44,567 bases of DNA from Candidatus Mailhella excrementigallinarum (GCA_019113085.1 DXIB01000239.1:1-44567), one strand, 5' to 3'; positions 11,188 through 37,149 are shown, numbered from the stretch's first letter. The notes: generated from the sequence alone by a model not told the origin. A program made the numbers and translations.

Positions 11188-11598
11188 TTACGCCAGCGCC
11201 ATGCTGGCTATATAGCCGGAGCGGGTCATGCCTGCCCTTTCCGCCTTGCGATCCAGCGCGGTCAGGGCGTTGCGCGGCATGGAAATCGTTACCTTTACCG
11301 GCGTTCTGTCCATGTCGGGCGCATGCACCATCTGGTACAGCGTATCAGGGGGAGTTTCCCAGCCCATTTCCCTGTCTTCCCGCTCCACCTTTTCGCGCAC
11401 ACGCGGCAGGGGAGTCGGATCGGGAATGGGGCGGCCTTCCCGGGCGTATTCCTCAAGGGAAATCCGTATGGCGTCCTCCGCCATTTCCATGGCTTCTTCC
11501 AGAGAATCGCCCTGCGTGGCCACTTCGGGAATATCCGGAACGCGCACTATATATCCGCCGTTTTTTTCCGGTTCAAATGCAACACCATAATATCTCAT
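11188..11598 (-). CDS. hicB: HicB-family antitoxin with C-terminal RHH domain
   Basis: YIVRVPDIPEVATQGDSLEEAMEMAEDAI motif; C-terminal VKVTISMPRNALTALDRKAERAGMTRSGYI; start refined to ATG 11598. Confidence 0.93.
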   Translation of the reverse strand: MRYYGVAFEPEKNGGYIVRVPDIPEVATQGDSLEEAMEMAEDAIRISLEEYAREGRPIPDPTPLPRVREKVEREDREMGWETPPDTLYQMVHAPDMDRTPVKVTISMPRNALTALDRKAERAGMTRSGYIASMALA

Positions 11599-11629
11599 AG
11601 GCGCTCCATCGGGGGGCCTCCCCCATGTT

Positions 11630-11809
11630 TTACAGAATCCGTATTCCTGTCTGTCTTTCGATGACCTTGACCATCCTGTCGTCAATCTCGTTATGCCGTC
11701 CCACAACGGTGACATAACGCCCGTCTTTCAGAATCCGGGTATGATTTCCGCCCTCCGCAAAGGTGAAACCGGCATCCCGGAGTTTTTTCAGGATATCCTT
11801 TCGTTTCAT
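11630..11809 (-). CDS. hicA: HicA-family mRNA interferase toxin (59 aa)
   Basis: Below the ORF-track cutoff; manual translation MKRKDILKKLRDAGFTFAEGGNHTRILKDGRYVTVVGRHNEIDDRMVKVIERQTGIRIL; GGAGG RBS; upstream of hicB. Confidence 0.92.
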   Translation of the reverse strand: MKRKDILKKLRDAGFTFAEGGNHTRILKDGRYVTVVGRHNEIDDRMVKVIERQTGIRIL

Positions 11810-11838
11810 CCCGCCTCCATGGGATATATAATTATGTA

Positions 11839-11873
11839 TTTTTTACATAATGTCCACTTTTTTATGTAAAAAA
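11839..11873. promoter_or_regulatory. Inverted repeat upstream of hicA, probable HicB operator
   Basis: TTTTTTACATAA-N11-TTATGTAAAAAA perfect 12-bp inverted repeat in the promoter region. Confidence 0.6.
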
Positions 11874-12362: not shown

Positions 12363-12398
12363 GGGGCACCTCGTGTGTTTGGGAAATTAAAATAAAAA

Positions 12399-12466
12399 GG
12401 CAGAACAACGCTCCCCGGTCACACGAGACCGCCGGGGCCTCACGGACACCCGGACGTTGTTCTGCC
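12399..12466 (-). ncRNA. C4/CI-like antisense RNA, unit B1 (cognate)
   Basis: 12-bp closing stem GGCAGAACAACG/CGTTGTTCTGCC, hairpin CGGTC-TCGTGT-GACCG; CTCGTGTG is complementary to CACACGAG upstream (12559-12566) and downstream (12370-12377). Confidence 0.8.
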
Positions 12467-12580
12467 AATATGAACCCGCCTGAAAGGGCGGAAAGTGGCA
12501 GATACGAAAAACGCCGCGATTCACTCCAGCTTGGGGCTGGCGAAGGCTCCGGCAGAGCCTCGTGTGTTCAGGGAACTTTA

Positions 12581-12608
12581 GGATTAACCGGAATATTCAC
12601 CTTGTCAA
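12581..12608 (-). promoter_or_regulatory. Putative sigma70 promoter for unit B1
   Basis: Perfect TTGACA (12608-12603), weak -10 TAATCC at 16-bp spacing. Confidence 0.5.
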
Positions 12609-12614
12609 GCAGGA

Positions 12615-13262
12615 TTAAAATGAACTGAGTTTTTTCAGTTCCCCTTGAAGGTGTTGTATTTTCTCTTTTTTCTTTATCAATTCATATGCTTCAATAATTA
12701 TTTCTGGCACATCTTTTGTTTGATATGCTGTCCCTGCACAAGAAATCATGAGCATGCCATGACCGCTGGTTGCTTCCTGAATAGATATATTGCATCCGAC
12801 AACAAAATTCGCACCCTTTTTAAGGCATTCAAATTTTGTATCAAGGATAGCACCTTTTTCTCCTTCTCGTATTTTTTCTTGATAAGTATGAGATTTTTCA
12901 CCAAAAAAATCAGTCCATGCCGATACTATTTCAGTCAGCGGTTCGGTACCTATCACTGCATGACCAGAAACAATTCCTTTAAATATTCCATCCCAAGAAA
13001 CAGGAGGAGGTGTTGTCAATAACTCAATATATTCCAATGCACTTTTTACTTTGTGTTTTAACATATCAGAAATTTCTTCTATTTCTTGACTCATTTTTTT
13101 ATTTTCTTCTTTTACATATTCATCCATACATTTTTGACACCACCCAGACGCATCAATCCCCTGCTTTCCCCAAAACTCTCTCTGGCCAGACATAGCAAGA
13201 GATGTTCCCAAGATGCCACCTATCTTTTTTCCACAAATAGAACAATTCACAGCATCAGCCAT
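12615..13262 (-). CDS. YbjQ/UPF0145-like domain protein with N-terminal zinc-binding motif
   Basis: CSICGKKI...CQKC, then GIVSGHAVIG...TDFFGEKSHTYQEKI...GANFVVG...MLMISCAGTA; AT-rich moron. Confidence 0.75.
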   Translation of the reverse strand: MADAVNCSICGKKIGGILGTSLAMSGQREFWGKQGIDASGWCQKCMDEYVKEENKKMSQEIEEISDMLKHKVKSALEYIELLTTPPPVSWDGIFKGIVSGHAVIGTEPLTEIVSAWTDFFGEKSHTYQEKIREGEKGAILDTKFECLKKGANFVVGCNISIQEATSGHGMLMISCAGTAYQTKDVPEIIIEAYELIKKKEKIQHLQGELKKLSSF

Positions 13263-13372
13263 AACCACCTCCATATTAAGTGGTCATTATCGTTAACCAA
13301 TGCTGTCTGCAAGACATGAGGGATAAACTTTATTTCGTTGATTTTGTTATGCACGTTGGCTGGACGCAAAAA

Positions 13373-13449
13373 AGGCCGGGAGCTCAAAACCGTCGTAGAA
13401 CGGCGGGCCTATTTCCCCGAAGGGTCTTGTATTAGCCCACTCCCGGCCT
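13373..13449 (-). ncRNA. C4/CI-like antisense RNA, unit A1 (orphan)
   Basis: Closing stem AGGCCGGGAG/CTCCCGGCCT, inner GGGC..CCC-TTCG-GGG..GCCC arm; guides TCTACGA and GTTTTGA complementary to upstream TCGTAGA (13519-13525) and TCAAAAC (13530-13536). Confidence 0.78.
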
Positions 13450-13551
13450 GAAAGTCGAAAAAACACCTTTGCATGTGCAAAGGGCACAAAAAACGCCACG
13501 CTGCGGGGTTGGCTGCCGTCTACGAAGGAGTTTTGAAGCTCCGTGGGATGG

Positions 13552-13580
13552 AGTAGAGCCAAAAAATACGGATCTGTCAA
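13552..13580 (-). promoter_or_regulatory. Putative sigma70 promoter for unit A1
   Basis: TTGACA-N17-TCTACT immediately upstream of the target boxes. Confidence 0.65.
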
Positions 13581-13737
13581 CTGCTCGGGCTTGCACTCAG
13601 AATAATTTAGAAATAGGTTTACTCAAGAAGTAACCATTTAATTTTTAAGGAGAAGATATGAGAAAATCATATTATCTTGACAACTAAAGCAGAGCGCAAA
13701 AGTAAAGAATATGCTTTTTACCAAGTGGGAGAGATTT

Positions 13738-14307
13738 ATGTGCAGACGTCTTTCAGTCATAATTATACTATCTTTTGCAATTTTGATTCACTTTCCTAAG
13801 TCTGCTGTAGCTGAAGGATTTGGAAAAATCGAATGGGGCATGTCCAAAGAGCAGGTAGAAAATCTAATAAATAGCAATCTTGAAAATTCATCATTCAAAA
13901 TATCACATTTTATTTTATATATGGATCAAATAAAAGTTCCATCTGAATATGTAAGTTATTCCTCAAAATTCAAGATATTTAACGTTGAATTTGATGCTGT
14001 TTTTTCATTTGACAATGCTCAACATCTCAAACAAATTGTATTATATCAAGAAAAACTTGGAGACGTAACAGTAATAACTAATGGTGGAGATTTGAATAAA
14101 AAATTTGAGAGTTATTTTACAAGACAATATGGAAAAATATATAAATCAAATTCGCTAAGATTTGATTTTATGCAATACTTAGATTTTCAATGGATGGGAA
14201 ATGAAACTTTTGTACATATGGTTGAACTTATTGATTTAAAGCCAAGTCAATCACAATATAAGCATGCAATCGAAATTATGATACGACAAGAAGATTCTCC
14301 ATTTTAA
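13738..14307 (+). CDS. Exported/periplasmic protein of unknown function (moron)
   Basis: Signal peptide MCRRLSVIIILSFAILIHFPKSAVA followed by EGFGKIEWGMSKEQV; very AT-rich; GGGAGA upstream. Confidence 0.75.
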   Translation: MCRRLSVIIILSFAILIHFPKSAVAEGFGKIEWGMSKEQVENLINSNLENSSFKISHFILYMDQIKVPSEYVSYSSKFKIFNVEFDAVFSFDNAQHLKQIVLYQEKLGDVTVITNGGDLNKKFESYFTRQYGKIYKSNSLRFDFMQYLDFQWMGNETFVHMVELIDLKPSQSQYKHAIEIMIRQEDSPF

Positions 14308-14359
14308 ACCATAAAGAGGGCAATGAAGGATTTCAGTACGCGCTGGCCGGACGCAAAAA

Positions 14360-14427
14360 GGCGGAACAACGCTCCCCGGTCCCCAGAGACCGCCGGGGCC
14401 TCACGGACACCCGGACGTTGTTCCGCC
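14360..14427 (-). ncRNA. C4/CI-like antisense RNA, unit B2 (orphan)
   Basis: Same scaffold as B1 with a compensatory stem change; guide CTCTGGGG complementary to upstream CCCCAGAG (14520-14527) and GGAGC to GCTCC (14530-14534). Confidence 0.8.
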
Positions 14428-14515
14428 AATATGCACCCGCCTGAAAGGGCGGAAAGTGGCAGATACGAAAAGCGCCGCGATTCACTCCAGCTTGGGGCTG
14501 GCGAAGGCTCCGGCA
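14360..14515. repeat. 156-bp direct repeat of 12399-12554
   Basis: Manual alignment gives 7 mismatches and no gaps. Confidence 0.95.
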
Positions 14516-14547
14516 ATGCCTCTGGGGTTGGAGCTTAAAAACAAAAA

Positions 14548-14627
14548 ACTCCGGGTGCTAGAAACGGCCAAACGAACCGCGGGCTATTTCCCCATAGAGG
14601 GTTTTATATTTCGCCCACACCCGGAGT
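14548..14627 (-). ncRNA. C4/CI-like antisense RNA, unit A2 (orphan, in tandem with B2)
   Basis: Closing stem ACTCCGGGTG/CACCCGGAGT, same inner arm layout as A1; guides CGTTTGG and GTTTCTAG complementary to upstream CCAAACG (14703-14709) and CTAGAAAC (14718-14725). Confidence 0.78.
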
Positions 14628-14792
14628 ATACACTCCACATATTGCCCTATGACCGACACATTCGGCGGACATAAAAAATCCACGGATTCAGGCGTGCCCC
14701 TGCGTTTGGTTCTAGCTGTTTCTAGTAGCTGTAGCCAAATTGGCGGATAAGTGAAAAAAATTCAAGAGGGGAGACTCAAAAAATTTTCTTTA

Positions 14793-15656
14793 TTAAAAAT
14801 ATGCTGTCAATATAACTTCTTTTGTTTTTTTGTTACAAAATAAGACAGCTTTTAGTTTAGTTACAATGCATTTATGTGTTATATTACAAGCATAAAAATT
14901 CCCCATCTTTGGACTCATGAAATCATTTGCTTCATAGATATATGGCAAATTATCATCGCCATAAAGTGTAACAACAAAAAATACTTCAAGATTTTTTTTC
15001 AATTGCCTCGCTTGATCTGGTGATACATTTTCTAGTACAATATTATCTATAAAAAGATTAGTTTTATTTATAAAAAATATTCCATACTCTATACCAGTTT
15101 CTTTTGTGTAACTTTGTCCCATACCAAACGAATTATATCCTACATTTCTTGAAAATTTCGTATTTGATATAATTAGAACAGAGTTTCCCCACACCTTATT
15201 GAACGATGGTCCTTCACCTATATGTGGATATAAAGTCAATTTCTTTGTGTCAGCATTGTAATTTATCTCGGGATAATATGTGTTTGCATGTGTTTTATAG
15301 GGAACAGCTTTAAATATAAGATATTCTTTGTTTTGCATTATTTTTTCAATTATAGGTTTAAAGTTATCCATAAAATCACTAGTTGGTGTAAATTCATCTT
15401 TTTTATTTAGCGATAATGCACTATATATTTTTTTTATATCATCATATTTTGAAGGATAACTATATACAACTTCATTTTTAGTATGAACTTCTGCAATTTC
15501 TGGACTATTATTGGACACATTTAAAGATTTACTTGTTTCAGAATTAAAAATATCATTTATCCTATTAGAATAACTCCAACTATTTTTTTGTACTTCACAT
15601 CCCGCCCCCAGAGCCATGACCAGTGCCACCGTAGCCAGCAAAAGCGACTTTCTCAT
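14793..15656 (-). CDS. Lipoprotein of unknown function (moron; superinfection-exclusion candidate)
   Basis: MRKSLLLATVALVMALGAGC lipobox; GGAGG RBS; very AT-rich body. Confidence 0.8.
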   Translation of the reverse strand: MRKSLLLATVALVMALGAGCEVQKNSWSYSNRINDIFNSETSKSLNVSNNSPEIAEVHTKNEVVYSYPSKYDDIKKIYSALSLNKKDEFTPTSDFMDNFKPIIEKIMQNKEYLIFKAVPYKTHANTYYPEINYNADTKKLTLYPHIGEGPSFNKVWGNSVLIISNTKFSRNVGYNSFGMGQSYTKETGIEYGIFFINKTNLFIDNIVLENVSPDQARQLKKNLEVFFVVTLYGDDNLPYIYEANDFMSPKMGNFYACNITHKCIVTKLKAVLFCNKKTKEVILTAYF

Positions 15657-15840
15657 AAAGGCAAACCTCCGTTTTCGCCTTGTAGCGTTAACGGAGGCCT
15701 TCACGCAAGGGTGTCCGCTTGCGGCAGAGGTGGCACATCTAAAAATAAACATATTATCAGCAGGTTATGGCAAACGGTTGAATATGATCAATTTTTAGGA
15801 TAATATTATCTTCATAATAAAGGTATAAAAAGGAGATGAC

Positions 15841-16370: not shown

Positions 16371-17165
16371 TCACGCGGCAAAAAGCGGCGAGCGCCAGCG
16401 GACGAGGTAATAAATCTTGTTTGAGATATGGACGGGGAAATTGCGGCGCATCATCTTGCCGAAGGCTGTGAGCGTGATAGAAGGCACGTTTTCCCGCTCG
16501 GCCCACTCAAGATATGCGGTATAAAGTTTGATGCACTGAATGCCGGAACTTCTGCGCGCTTCCTCCAGATATTCACGCGCCCAGGATTCAGCCTTTTCCA
16601 GCGGGGAGTCGTCGTGAAGAGGAGTAAATTCCGGGCCGGAAATGTAATAGCAGAATTCCAGAAAATAGCGTTTCACATCCGCGCCGTAACGGCCCTTGGC
16701 CATTTGCACGGCATAGCACAGCGCCTTGTCGCGCATCTTGGGTGACATACGACGCATAATCTGTTCCAGTTCTTCGTTGTTCATGCCGGAAAGAGAAATA
16801 TTGTCGTTTCCTCCAATATTCTTTTTTCCTCCGGGCATCTTGTAGCAACCGTTCTTACGGAGTGAGGGCAGCACATCTCCGGCCAGCCATTTTTGAAAAG
16901 GCAGAGCGGCGGTTTTGTCGCTCCGGCCCAAAAAGAAATACAACCCCTGTTCGGAAAGAGTCAGCATTTCCTGTGTGCCAGAGGGGGTCACAACGGATGT
17001 GATCCCCCGCCATTCTTCCGGAACATGTGCAATACGGCTTGAACCATTCCATTCATAACCTAAAGCCAAAGCCACATCCTTCGCCACGAACCACGGGTTC
17101 CCGTTCTCGTCAAGAGCCACGCGCACCCTGTTGCCTTCAAACAGATACGGCATAATCTGAGACAT
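16371..17165 (-). CDS. BRO-N domain antirepressor-like protein with C-terminal primase-type winged-helix
   Basis: FEGNRVRV...PWFVAKDVALALGY...LSEQGLYFFLGRSDK..ALPFQKWLAGDVLPSLRKNG; start refined to ATG 17165 with GGAGG RBS. Confidence 0.9.
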   Translation of the reverse strand: MSQIMPYLFEGNRVRVALDENGNPWFVAKDVALALGYEWNGSSRIAHVPEEWRGITSVVTPSGTQEMLTLSEQGLYFFLGRSDKTAALPFQKWLAGDVLPSLRKNGCYKMPGGKKNIGGNDNISLSGMNNEELEQIMRRMSPKMRDKALCYAVQMAKGRYGADVKRYFLEFCYYISGPEFTPLHDDSPLEKAESWAREYLEEARRSSGIQCIKLYTAYLEWAERENVPSITLTAFGKMMRRNFPVHISNKIYYLVRWRSPLFAA

Positions 17166-17176
17166 TTTCCCTCCGT

Positions 17177-17542
17177 TCATCTCATCCGCGCCTTGCGCTG
17201 TTCCGTCTCCTGCTCCCGGCGGGAGGCTTCCAGCGTCCAGTGTTCCAGCCACATCAGGTGCCCGAATATCCGTTCGTCGATCCTGATGCCCAGCCAGCCC
17301 GCCGCCACCTGCACGGCGTTGTAATCCAGACCCAGCGGCCCCAGGCCCGCGCGCCACTGGGTCCGGCAGCCCAGCCACAGCCTGCGGGTTGTCCACAGGC
17401 CGGGCACAAGCCGGGGCTGGCGCTTGTCGCAGCCCCGGCAGTCCACCTTCTGATTTCGTCTCTGGCGGCGCTCTACGCAGCCGGCGCAGTATTTCGCGCG
17501 CCCCGCGTCGTGGAGCCAGCGCCACCAGATTTCGAGTTTTTT
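17177..17542 (-). CDS. Tail assembly chaperone gpT-like segment (DUF1799-like), reached by -1 frameshift
   Basis: TQWRAGLGPLGLDYNAV motif; frame is open from the slippery site (KLEIWWRWLH...). Confidence 0.8.
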   Translation of the reverse strand, partial: KKLEIWWRWLHDAGRAKYCAGCVERRQRRNQKVDCRGCDKRQPRLVPGLWTTRRLWLGCRTQWRAGLGPLGLDYNAVQVAAGWLGIRIDERIFGHLMWLEHWTLEASRREQETEQRKARMR

Positions 17543-17847
17543 GTTTCCAGCTCCTCCGAACCGAGGGCATCAATGCGCCGGGCCAGCGCCACGGCGTCGG
17601 CGCTGGTCATCAGTTCCTGCTTTGAGGGGTCGCGCAGGCAGGCGGCGATCTTGTTCTTCCGGGCGCGCCATTCCTGCGCCGTCACGGAGAGTTCGATCTG
17701 CGCGCGTTCTTCGTCCGAAGCGTTGGTAAGTTTTTCCAGCGCATCCACGCGGGCATCCATTTCCTCGCGGAATTCCGGCCAGCTCTGGGCGCGCACTTCC
17801 ACCCGCAGGCCGGAGGGCAGTTCCACCATGTGATACTGAGTAGGCAT
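17473..17847 (-). CDS. Tail assembly chaperone (gpG-like)
   Basis: Follows the tail tube gene; ends ...ETKN at an A AAA AAC slippery heptamer. Confidence 0.8.
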   Translation of the reverse strand: MPTQYHMVELPSGLRVEVRAQSWPEFREEMDARVDALEKLTNASDEERAQIELSVTAQEWRARKNKIAACLRDPSKQELMTSADAVALARRIDALGSEELETKNSKSGGAGSTTRGARNTAPAA

Positions 17848-36102: not shown

Positions 36103-36183
36103 AAACTCCTGCGTATAGGCGCATATCTATGCCCTCAAATGCAGGCAGAGCCAAGGAAAATGAAGTATGGCAGGCGATGTCAA

Positions 36184-36231
36184 ACGGCTTTCACGCCGTC
36201 AACGGGGGTTCGAATCCCCCTGGGGACGCCA
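36184..36231 (+). other. att site: 3' fragment of tRNA-Glu(TTC), not an intact tRNA
   Basis: CTTTCAC anticodon loop, GGTTCGAATCC T-arm and GGGGACGCCA end present; no 5' GTCCCC acceptor strand or D-arm upstream. Confidence 0.88.
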
Positions 36232-36240
36232 AATGAAATC

Positions 36241-36271
36241 AAAGGGTTGCATAAAAATGCAGCCCTTTTTT
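36241..36271 (+). terminator. Intrinsic terminator after the tRNA fragment
   Basis: AAAGGGTTGCAT-AAAA-ATGCAGCCCTTTTTT. Confidence 0.75.
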
Positions 36272-36276
36272 CGTAT

Positions 36277-36308
36277 GTGGGGCAAATTTGCCCCACGCTC
36301 TGCCCCAC
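36277..36308. repeat. TGCCCCAC x3 (one inverted), probable arm sites of a second, older element
   Basis: GTGGGGCAAATTTGCCCCAC palindrome plus a direct copy at 36301. Confidence 0.55.
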
Positions 36309-36399
36309 AAATTTGGAAAATTTTGATAATTGTGTAGGATACAATTTATGGGTATCCTCTTTATCGCCAAAACTAACTCCTAAGATTCAAAGGAAAAAC

Positions 36400-37149
36400 A
36401 TGCCACCGATCAAAAAGATGAGTGTGGAAGATGTCCTCACCATTCGTAGGCTTTTGAGTTCCTGTGAGCTAGCTGAAAGAGATTCTTTTGGCATGATTGA
36501 ACCCCTTAACCGTGGGAAACTTGAATCAGCTGTTGCTCGTCAAATGACGGGACATGGTGAAATATTCAAATACGATACAGTTGAAGCGGTTGGGGCAACT
36601 CTATTTTATGGTATTGTCATGAGTCATGCTTTTGAAAATGGAAATAAGCGTACTGGGCTGATTACATTACTTATATTTTTGGACCAAAATCAGAGTATGC
36701 TTGTTGAAGTTGACGAAGATGAACTTTATCAATTTACACGTTCTGTCGCAGCACATGAAATTGCTCTACCTGATGGACTAGAACGAAACAGCGACTCCGA
36801 GGTTGAATCAATCACTCGATGGATTGAACAGCATTCACGCACAAAAATTCTTGGCGACCGCGCAATAAAATTCCCTGAACTAAGAGTAATCTTGGAAGCT
36901 TTCGGATGTACCTTCGAATCACCAAAGAAAAATTTTATCAAGATTCGCCGGAGACCTTATATGACGAATATTGGATACCCTAGACAGGATTTTGAGTTGT
37001 CCATTGACACTATTAAAAAAATACGGAAAGATTTACATTTGTCAGAGATAGATGGTGTGGACTCATCTGGTTTTTATGACTACGCAGCTGGTGTTACTAC
37101 TTTTGTGAATACGCATAGAAACTTGCTGAAAAGGTTGGCTGCACTATAG
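36400..37149 (+). CDS. Fic/Doc-family protein with C-terminal extension
   Basis: LESAVAR and HAFENGNKRTG Doc-type motif; start refined to ATG 36400. Confidence 0.9.
   Translation: MPPIKKMSVEDVLTIRRLLSSCELAERDSFGMIEPLNRGKLESAVARQMTGHGEIFKYDTVEAVGATLFYGIVMSHAFENGNKRTGLITLLIFLDQNQSMLVEVDEDELYQFTRSVAAHEIALPDGLERNSDSEVESITRWIEQHSRTKILGDRAIKFPELRVILEAFGCTFESPKKNFIKIRRRPYMTNIGYPRQDFELSIDTIKKIRKDLHLSEIDGVDSSGFYDYAAGVTTFVNTHRNLLKRLAAL

Follow-up and report, generated by a model that had tools for sequence, protein, structure and literature searches.

Layout of the cassette

The window (the whole 44,567 nt stretch of Candidatus Mailhella excrementigallinarum DNA that was analysed, GCA_019113085.1 DXIB01000239.1:1-44567) is a lambdoid prophage that carries genes for terminase, portal, head and tail. 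A cassette, flanked by a Bro-N antirepressor gene on one side and by hicAB and the tape measure gene on the other, contains RNA units, B1, B2 and those surrounding them, that are read from the minus strand (Table 1). In order of transcription the stack is A2, B2, cargo, A1, cargo, B1, ORF1, ORF2, so that two units of the sRNA-Xcc1 type (A1 and A2) are interleaved with the B units and flank B2. A weak promoter-like site in front of A2 is the likely start of an A2-B2 co-transcript. ORF1 and ORF2 probably form one operon. Searches of PHROG and Pfam assigned neither to a family, and the Atlas leads for ORF1 stayed below 0.9. ORF1 has just 14 close homologues; none was found in the viral contigs searched, and among the 33 other genomes of the genus G016 alone carries a relative.

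Several other genes of the window were noted. The hicAB pair (11188-11809, minus strand) follows ORF2 and has a promoter-like site at 11828-11856; hicB also lies downstream of B units at two other loci (L013 and L053). The Bro-N gene (16371-17573, minus strand) sits upstream of the cassette, right behind the tail-chaperone region, and a scan of the window detected neither a B nor an Xcc1 unit before it. Upstream of the cassette, at 17177-17847 (minus strand), lie two ORFs that resemble tail-chaperone genes and use different frames, which we take to be a possible programmed frameshift pair. A Doc-like toxin gene (36139-37149, plus strand) lies on the opposite strand, upstream of primase genes.

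Table 1. Features of the cassette, in window coordinates.
Feature	Position	Strand	Details
ORF2, 82 aa	11888..12136	-	overlaps the end of ORF1; no family
ORF1, 79 aa	12123..12362	-	first gene behind B1; no PHROG or Pfam family
B1 downstream bipartite box	12367..12385	-	parts 12370-12377 and 12381-12385; on Shine-Dalgarno site 12367-12372 of ORF1
B1 guide RNA core	12399..12466	-	three-way junction; loop 12421-12426; constant segment 12411-12416
B1 leader	12507..12559	-	terminator-like stem ending in U-run 12507-12512, overlapped by a predicted anti-terminator hairpin, 12545-12559 (modelled)
B1 upstream bipartite box	12559..12575	-	constant part 12571-12575; variable part 12559-12566
B1 promoter-like site	12581..12608	-	TTGACA, 16 nt, TAATCC; from sequence
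YbjQ-domain cargo gene	12615..13274	-	between A1 and B1; Pfam PF01906, E 1.6e-12
A1, sRNA-Xcc1-family guide	13366..13448	-	RF02221, 66.4 bits; orphan here, without downstream box
A1 upstream bipartite box and promoter-like site	13519..13580	-	box 13519-13525 and 13530-13536; promoter-like site 13550-13580
Cargo gene, 198 aa	13711..14307	+	NGO_1070-like match weak, below cut-off
B2 guide RNA core, orphan	14360..14427	-	loop 14382-14387; constant segment 14372-14377
B2 leader and upstream box	14468..14534	-	directly after A2; box 14520-14527 and 14530-14534
A2, second sRNA-Xcc1-like guide, orphan	14541..14626	-	RF02221, 47.6 bits, E 1.2e-6, below gathering score
A2 upstream bipartite box and weak promoter-like site	14703..14765	-	box 14703-14709 and 14718-14725; promoter-like site 14737-14765

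B1 and B2 are one scaffold with two loops

An earlier note on this DNA counted 7 differences over the 156 positions of the segments 12399-12554 and 14360-14515, and the count is correct. The changes are 12402/14363 A>G, 12421 A>C, 12423 A>C, 12424 C>A, 12463/14424 T>C, 12473 A>C and 12511 A>G. That note also correctly placed three of the differences in the 6 nt hairpin loop (minus strand TCGTGT in B1, TCTGGG in B2), found them mirrored in the upstream box, and recognised 12402/12463 as one compensated pair of the closing stem, A-U in B1 and G-C in B2. The mirror positions in the box are 12562, 12563 and 12565. On the minus strand of the window CACACGAG occurs at 12559 and 12370 and nowhere else, and CCCCAGAG at 14520 and nowhere else; a plus-strand copy of CCCCAGAG at 15606 was read as chance. 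Both cores fold far better than shuffled sequences (z = -4.9 and -5.2, 0/200). A plus-strand reading of the units was rejected: the promoter, the Shine-Dalgarno site, the gene and the Xcc1 matches are all on the minus strand.

Two features go beyond that description. B1 has two boxes, the second of which overlies the ribosome-binding site (RBS) of the next gene, and a constant guide segment, GGGGAG (12411-12416 and 14372-14377), is complementary to a stretch just 5′ of each box. In the energy model the upstream box of the B1 unit forms a duplex of -28.9 kcal/mol with the B1 guide vs -17.6 kcal/mol with B2, and the corresponding values for the B1 RBS box are -20.9 and -10.1 kcal/mol. The B1 promoter-like site was not reported by a consensus promoter scan; a TTGAC-like element 40-43 nt before the box recurs in 62 of 73 leaders. 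For B2, the window sequence contains no promoter of its own, no downstream box and no gene behind it. The minimum-energy fold of isolated B2 is predicted to bury the loop, lying 8.1 kcal/mol below the open fold, with an unpaired probability of at most 0.13 for the loop bases. The loop is predicted not to be open in 18 of 81 family loops, and in G016 the sole B guide of the ORF1 operon has the B2-type loop despite this predicted burial. Loop and upstream box can pair with each other in the full-length fold. The central hairpin of the leader (12531-12536 in the window, and homologous leaders) often has a CCC-containing loop, which could pair with the constant G-run of the guide.

A structured RNA family in Desulfovibrionaceae

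B units match no Rfam family, either at the gathering score or at E up to 10, and B1 has no match among GenBank phages. Further units were collected by scaffold motifs only, from relatives, viral contigs, genomes and metagenomes (120 of about 340 metagenome stretches). The genome search, run with a loose pattern, covered 7 of 64 parts; chance matches made up the majority of the 120 loci listed, and only loci that parsed as units were kept. A second viral pattern listed 120 loci, and the covariance model, applied to 100 of these, gave 11 matches. The named records with true units are titled Mailhella, Desulfovibrio or Desulfovibrionaceae. The covariance model finds units in 16 of 150 other genomes of the family. 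In 150 genomes of the phylum it gives only five weak matches (E 1.6e-6 to 2.6e-4), and these, from other families, were set aside, having no clear box match. One genome (G204) contains six B units with five different loops (L177, L189, L195-L198).

An alignment of 55 sequences fits a three-way junction, with 96.6% of its cells paired vs 31-58% in slid controls, a comparison that favours the junction since the structure was drawn from the same 55 sequences. Changes on both sides are seen in 12 of 20 stem pairs, variants in the middle of P2 also compensate, and G-U pairs are tolerated. RNAalifold reproduces P1, P3 and the P2 tip but pairs the invariant junction differently; the bases there, being invariant, do not decide between the two foldings.

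Loops covary with two target boxes

In total 156 units were parsed, and one chance unit (L143) was dropped before counting. Full flanks were available for 142 lead units. In 117 of them the loop matches both own boxes over at least 6 nt, the two boxes lying on the same strand within about 140 nt; in 14 it matches the upstream box only, in 5 the downstream box only and in 6 neither. With one unit per distinct loop, 66 of 80 match both own boxes, against 2.7 on average and 10 at most in 10,000 permutations; the two search ranges for the boxes were set after inspecting the unit layout and were identical for real and permuted pairs. Loops in the homologues thus do not change independently of their targets. 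When the own loop was compared with that of the unit most similar in leader and scaffold, it matched the boxes better in 76 cases, with 2 ties and 2 losses (n = 80). Together with the box covariation over 80 loops, this control supports the proposal in the earlier note that the loop is a programmable specificity determinant. Two copies alone would be compatible with a one-off coincidence, which the homologue set excludes. Among 18 further model matches, two of which repeat counted units, 17 fit their upstream box over 7 nt or more, and 17 their downstream box.

The pairing is bipartite. In 64 of 66 units both boxes are preceded, within 9 nt on the 5′ side, by a YCCY motif, to which the constant GGGGAG segment is complementary; the background value is 16%. 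In four divergent loci (L181-L184), the constant segment and the part of the box that faces it change together, as read by eye. Folding of the leaders gave a terminator-like structure in 41 of 72 when the box was blocked, in 10 of 72 when it was free and in 12 of 72 when the block ended 4 nt short; 31 of 73 leaders are modelled without such a fold in either state. Five loci (L336, L358, L369, L411 and L427) have two boxes of different specificity types and may be recombinants or assembly chimeras.

Flanking sequence was sufficient at 50 loci. Of these, 21 carry a gene of the antirepressor families (Bro-N, Rha, P22_AR_N or AntA) within 1.5 kb and 8 a primase-type gene, such a gene often being the first behind the guide. 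An antirepressor or replication gene within 1.5 kb is thereby found in 29 of 50 relatives, while ORF1 and ORF2 of the window belong to no family. Two or more loops occur in 13 of 42 clusters of first genes, and one cluster has 13 loops.

Sister prophages and orphan guides

A sister prophage in G016 (contig C56) is 90-99% identical to the window over more than 27 kb. There, ORF1 stands behind a B2-type guide with B2-type boxes, and the modelled duplex of the RBS box is -20.5 kcal/mol with B2 vs -12.2 kcal/mol with B1. Further upstream come an A1-type Xcc1 unit, an RBS box that matches it and a stretch of about 14 ORF1 codons, followed by a new promoter. This sequence arrangement suggests that a B module was inserted in front of ORF1. 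The A1 RNA of G016 still scores 64.9 bits next to this gene remnant. The two sisters also have in common a 128 nt piece with a signal-peptide-like start (window 15597-15724; G016:C56 56778-56905), the rest of that cargo gene differing between them.

In a contig from run X7, the unit immediately preceding ORF1 is of the Xcc1 type, and its loop (13395, 13396) has changed together with its upstream box (13522, 13523) and its RBS box. A copy of A1 without substitutions and a B-type orphan unit are present further upstream. Because none of the 24 differences listed for this B unit, out of 25, falls in the loop or box, we infer from the difference counts, and not from a direct reading of the loop, that it would carry the B1 key. 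The order of modules differs among the window, G016 and X7, and A1 is kept as an orphan in all three. Each of these sequences was assembled across repeats that are nearly identical, and may be chimeric. The B1-A1 layout is confirmed by run X1 (1670 nt, 5 differences); the A2-B2 junction is present in the window's assembly alone.

Stacking is also seen within single loci. Eight tandem extra guides, which come from related contigs and represent 4 loop types, were compared with boxes in the collection. None matches its own boxes, 7 of 8 (3 of the 4 loop types) match boxes of other loci, against about 8% under the null, and for 5 of the 8 a matched locus shares the first gene. Leaderless tandem arrays, in which 2-3 B guides follow each other about 80 nt apart, occur at L032, L034, L045, L047, L343, L378, L426, L427 and L442. 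The extra guides in leaderless arrays retain paired closing stems that differ from that of the lead guide.

Comparison with known antisense RNAs

The C4 antisense RNA of phages P1 and P7 (Rfam RF01695) controls icd-ant. In the available text of PMC5320573, PMC12197685 and PMC8198154, C4 is described as three helices with two single-stranded pairing segments and a target over the ribosome-binding site. Its structure, processing and P1/P7 specificity are already set out in those parts, a variable segment determining specificity such that P1 and P7 differ by 4 nt in the RNA plus the targets. The B family resembles C4 in being a three-helix RNA closed by a long stem, and C4 and the CI RNA of phage P4 in having two single-stranded segments complementary to a two-part target. 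Upstream and RBS targets as in C4/CI are present for B1 and for the same 117 of 142 lead units, but B2 has the upstream one only. Antirepressor-family genes behind many B relatives may be a further likeness to C4. RF01695 itself gave no match for B units at E up to 10; none of 101 genomes of the family exceeded its cut-off, and the genome of the window had no match. Unlike C4, the B family has about 80 specificities and sister-specific orphan guides stacked upstream, and the first gene in the window belongs to no known family.

For P4 CI, the portions available of PMC4825925 and PMC3632133 report targets upstream and downstream of the RNA (seqA and seqC), the upstream leader being linked to termination. 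IsrK is a homologue of seqA, and the isrK model of Rfam did not match B units. Some B relatives resemble P4 in having primase genes behind the guide. Unlike the P4 satellite, the window is a full lambdoid prophage, and termination is here a modelled property.

sRNA-Xcc1 shares with B the order promoter, box, RNA, box, and one such unit takes the place of B before ORF1 in X7. B1 and B2 do not match RF02221, the sRNA-Xcc1 model, whose cut-off A1 exceeds and A2 does not reach. In Xcc1 both pairing segments vary, whereas in the B family one is nearly constant. Of 29 Xcc1 units, taken from 30 genome loci out of 77 matches (L449-L478) and including A1 and A2 of the window, 27 have a loop that matches the upstream box (permutation mean 5.1), 20 a loop that matches the RBS box (2.6), and 27 a bulge that matches the upstream box (4.5). 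In the accessible sections of PMC12189769, 10.1101/2025.06.18.660453 and 10.1101/2020.03.17.996009, Xcc1 is treated as a virulence-linked or unexplained sRNA, with no such mechanism.

Defence in trans by spare C4-like RNAs has been raised as a possibility for Salmonella lambdoid prophages and Acinetobacter Group 1 sRNAs (PMC3632133 and PMC5320573, in the text available). Those proposals, as far as that text goes, name no matched target phage; here the exact target operon of B2 is found in a sister prophage and, again unlike those proposals, a further sister (X7) appears to hold the B1-type key of the window. The portions available of PMC2864571 and PMC7067206 yielded nothing on the B-unit family, and the supplements of PMC2864571 may bear on C4-like motifs. 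In the literature searched, mostly outside subscription journals, we found no report of the B-unit family or of stacked sister-specific guides. Reprogramming of a loop together with its target is known from P1/P7; what is new is the B family, its many specificities and the retained sister-specific guides.

Proposed mechanism and alternatives

Our main reading, to which we assign a probability of about 0.75, is that B1 and B2 are specificity variants of one antisense RNA of the C4/CI type, B1 silencing ORF1/ORF2 and the orphan B2 silencing the same genes in a sister phage. B1 very probably functions in this way, while for the predicted action of B2 in trans we see about an even chance. The earlier interpretation is upheld in substance and needs extending in three respects: the control would be of a known type, C4/CI; the pairing is bipartite; and B2 would be an orphan matching a sister phage, not a second working switch. 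Its claim that the units are functional RNAs gains from covariation in the stem (12 of 20 pairs) and between loop and boxes, which is what points to function, although the B2 loop is predicted to be buried.

The key events would be as follows. A transcript would start at the upstream box, as the conserved TTGAC-like site suggests. The three-way junction of about 70 nt would be released as a stable RNA, by analogy with C4/CI through RNase P. The variable loop and the constant GGGGAG, complementary to the two-part boxes and covarying with them, would bind these boxes. Pairing with the downstream box, which overlaps the Shine-Dalgarno site of the first gene, would repress its translation, and pairing with the upstream box may favour the terminator-like leader fold, as modelled. 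Whole modules of promoter, box and guide appear to be replaced in front of the gene while earlier guides stay upstream, the pattern seen in the three sister assemblies. The retained guides would then silence the operon of an incoming sister that is still without its own guide. A broader proposal, which we hold tentatively and put somewhat short of even odds, is that the cassette works as an RNA memory of rival phages that needs no protein: older guides would stay upstream and expressed, and the stack, built from two interchangeable scaffolds (the B family and sRNA-Xcc1) with dozens of specificities, would silence the lysis-decision operon of sisters.

The main challenge to these proposals accepts B1 as described and takes B2 and the other orphans for inert leftovers of recombination between repeated modules, with no protection in trans. 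We consider this possible, though less likely than not. B2 has neither its own promoter nor a downstream gene and is predicted to have a buried loop; several units are chimeras of box and loop; the module order varies among the window, G016 and X7 in the way expected of homologous recombination; and a leftover would match a sister simply by having come from one. Against inert leftovers, however, the leaderless extra guides keep paired closing stems unlike that of the lead guide, and the A1 orphan is kept in the window, G016 and X7, at 64.9 bits in G016 beside a gene of which only about 14 codons remain. The same extra guides make it unlikely that pairing is purely in cis, with loop and box forming an attenuator inside one transcript and no free RNA acting in trans: all 8 lack a target in cis and yet have kept their structure, and a closed stem with a U-run mirrors the processed, trans-acting C4 and CI RNAs (PMC5320573 and PMC4825925, in the parts available). 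A cis attenuator would account for the proximity of the two boxes in most lead units and for the full-length fold in which the upstream box can pair with the loop.

Co-option of the orphan guides to regulate host or other phage genes, as proposed for Acinetobacter C4-like RNAs in the available part of PMC5320573, seems highly improbable. Nineteen B2-type two-part patterns do occur in the genome, one of them at window position 15600 (plus strand) before a short ORF, but the B2 pattern is C-rich and short, its 8-mer alone being found 4 times on the plus strand. The patterns of A1 and A2 have no match outside their own units in this genome, which is 87% complete, and B2 has its exact match in the same operon of a sister phage. 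We give least credence, close to none, to the repeats being cassette recombination sites that act as DNA, with covariation arising from pairing of single strands. Modules and cargo genes are indeed shuffled between sisters, and sRNA-Xcc1 occurs in integron cassettes (10.1101/2025.06.18.660453, in its accessible part); yet the downstream box overlies a Shine-Dalgarno site, the stems tolerate G-U pairs, and there is a promoter-like site before the box, all of which speak against action as DNA.

On the reading of B1 and B2 as C4/CI-like specificity variants, the family extends a type of control whose specificity is known from very few phages, the B scaffold occurring with about 80 loop sequences. 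Up to 13 loops before one first-gene family would give a small programmable RNA repressor a natural code table, together with a ready set of orthogonal guide-target pairs. If the orphans act in trans, stacking of RNAs would give prophages multi-specific protection against close relatives, and the pair formed by the window and G016 makes action in trans testable by one reporter. The same layout offers a candidate mechanism for sRNA-Xcc1.

Two minor observations concern the distribution of the Xcc1 scaffold. The genome of the window contains a third sRNA-Xcc1-like unit (G000:C22:11362-11451, 46.1 bits), and one other genome, G072, combines ten Xcc1 matches with two B units.
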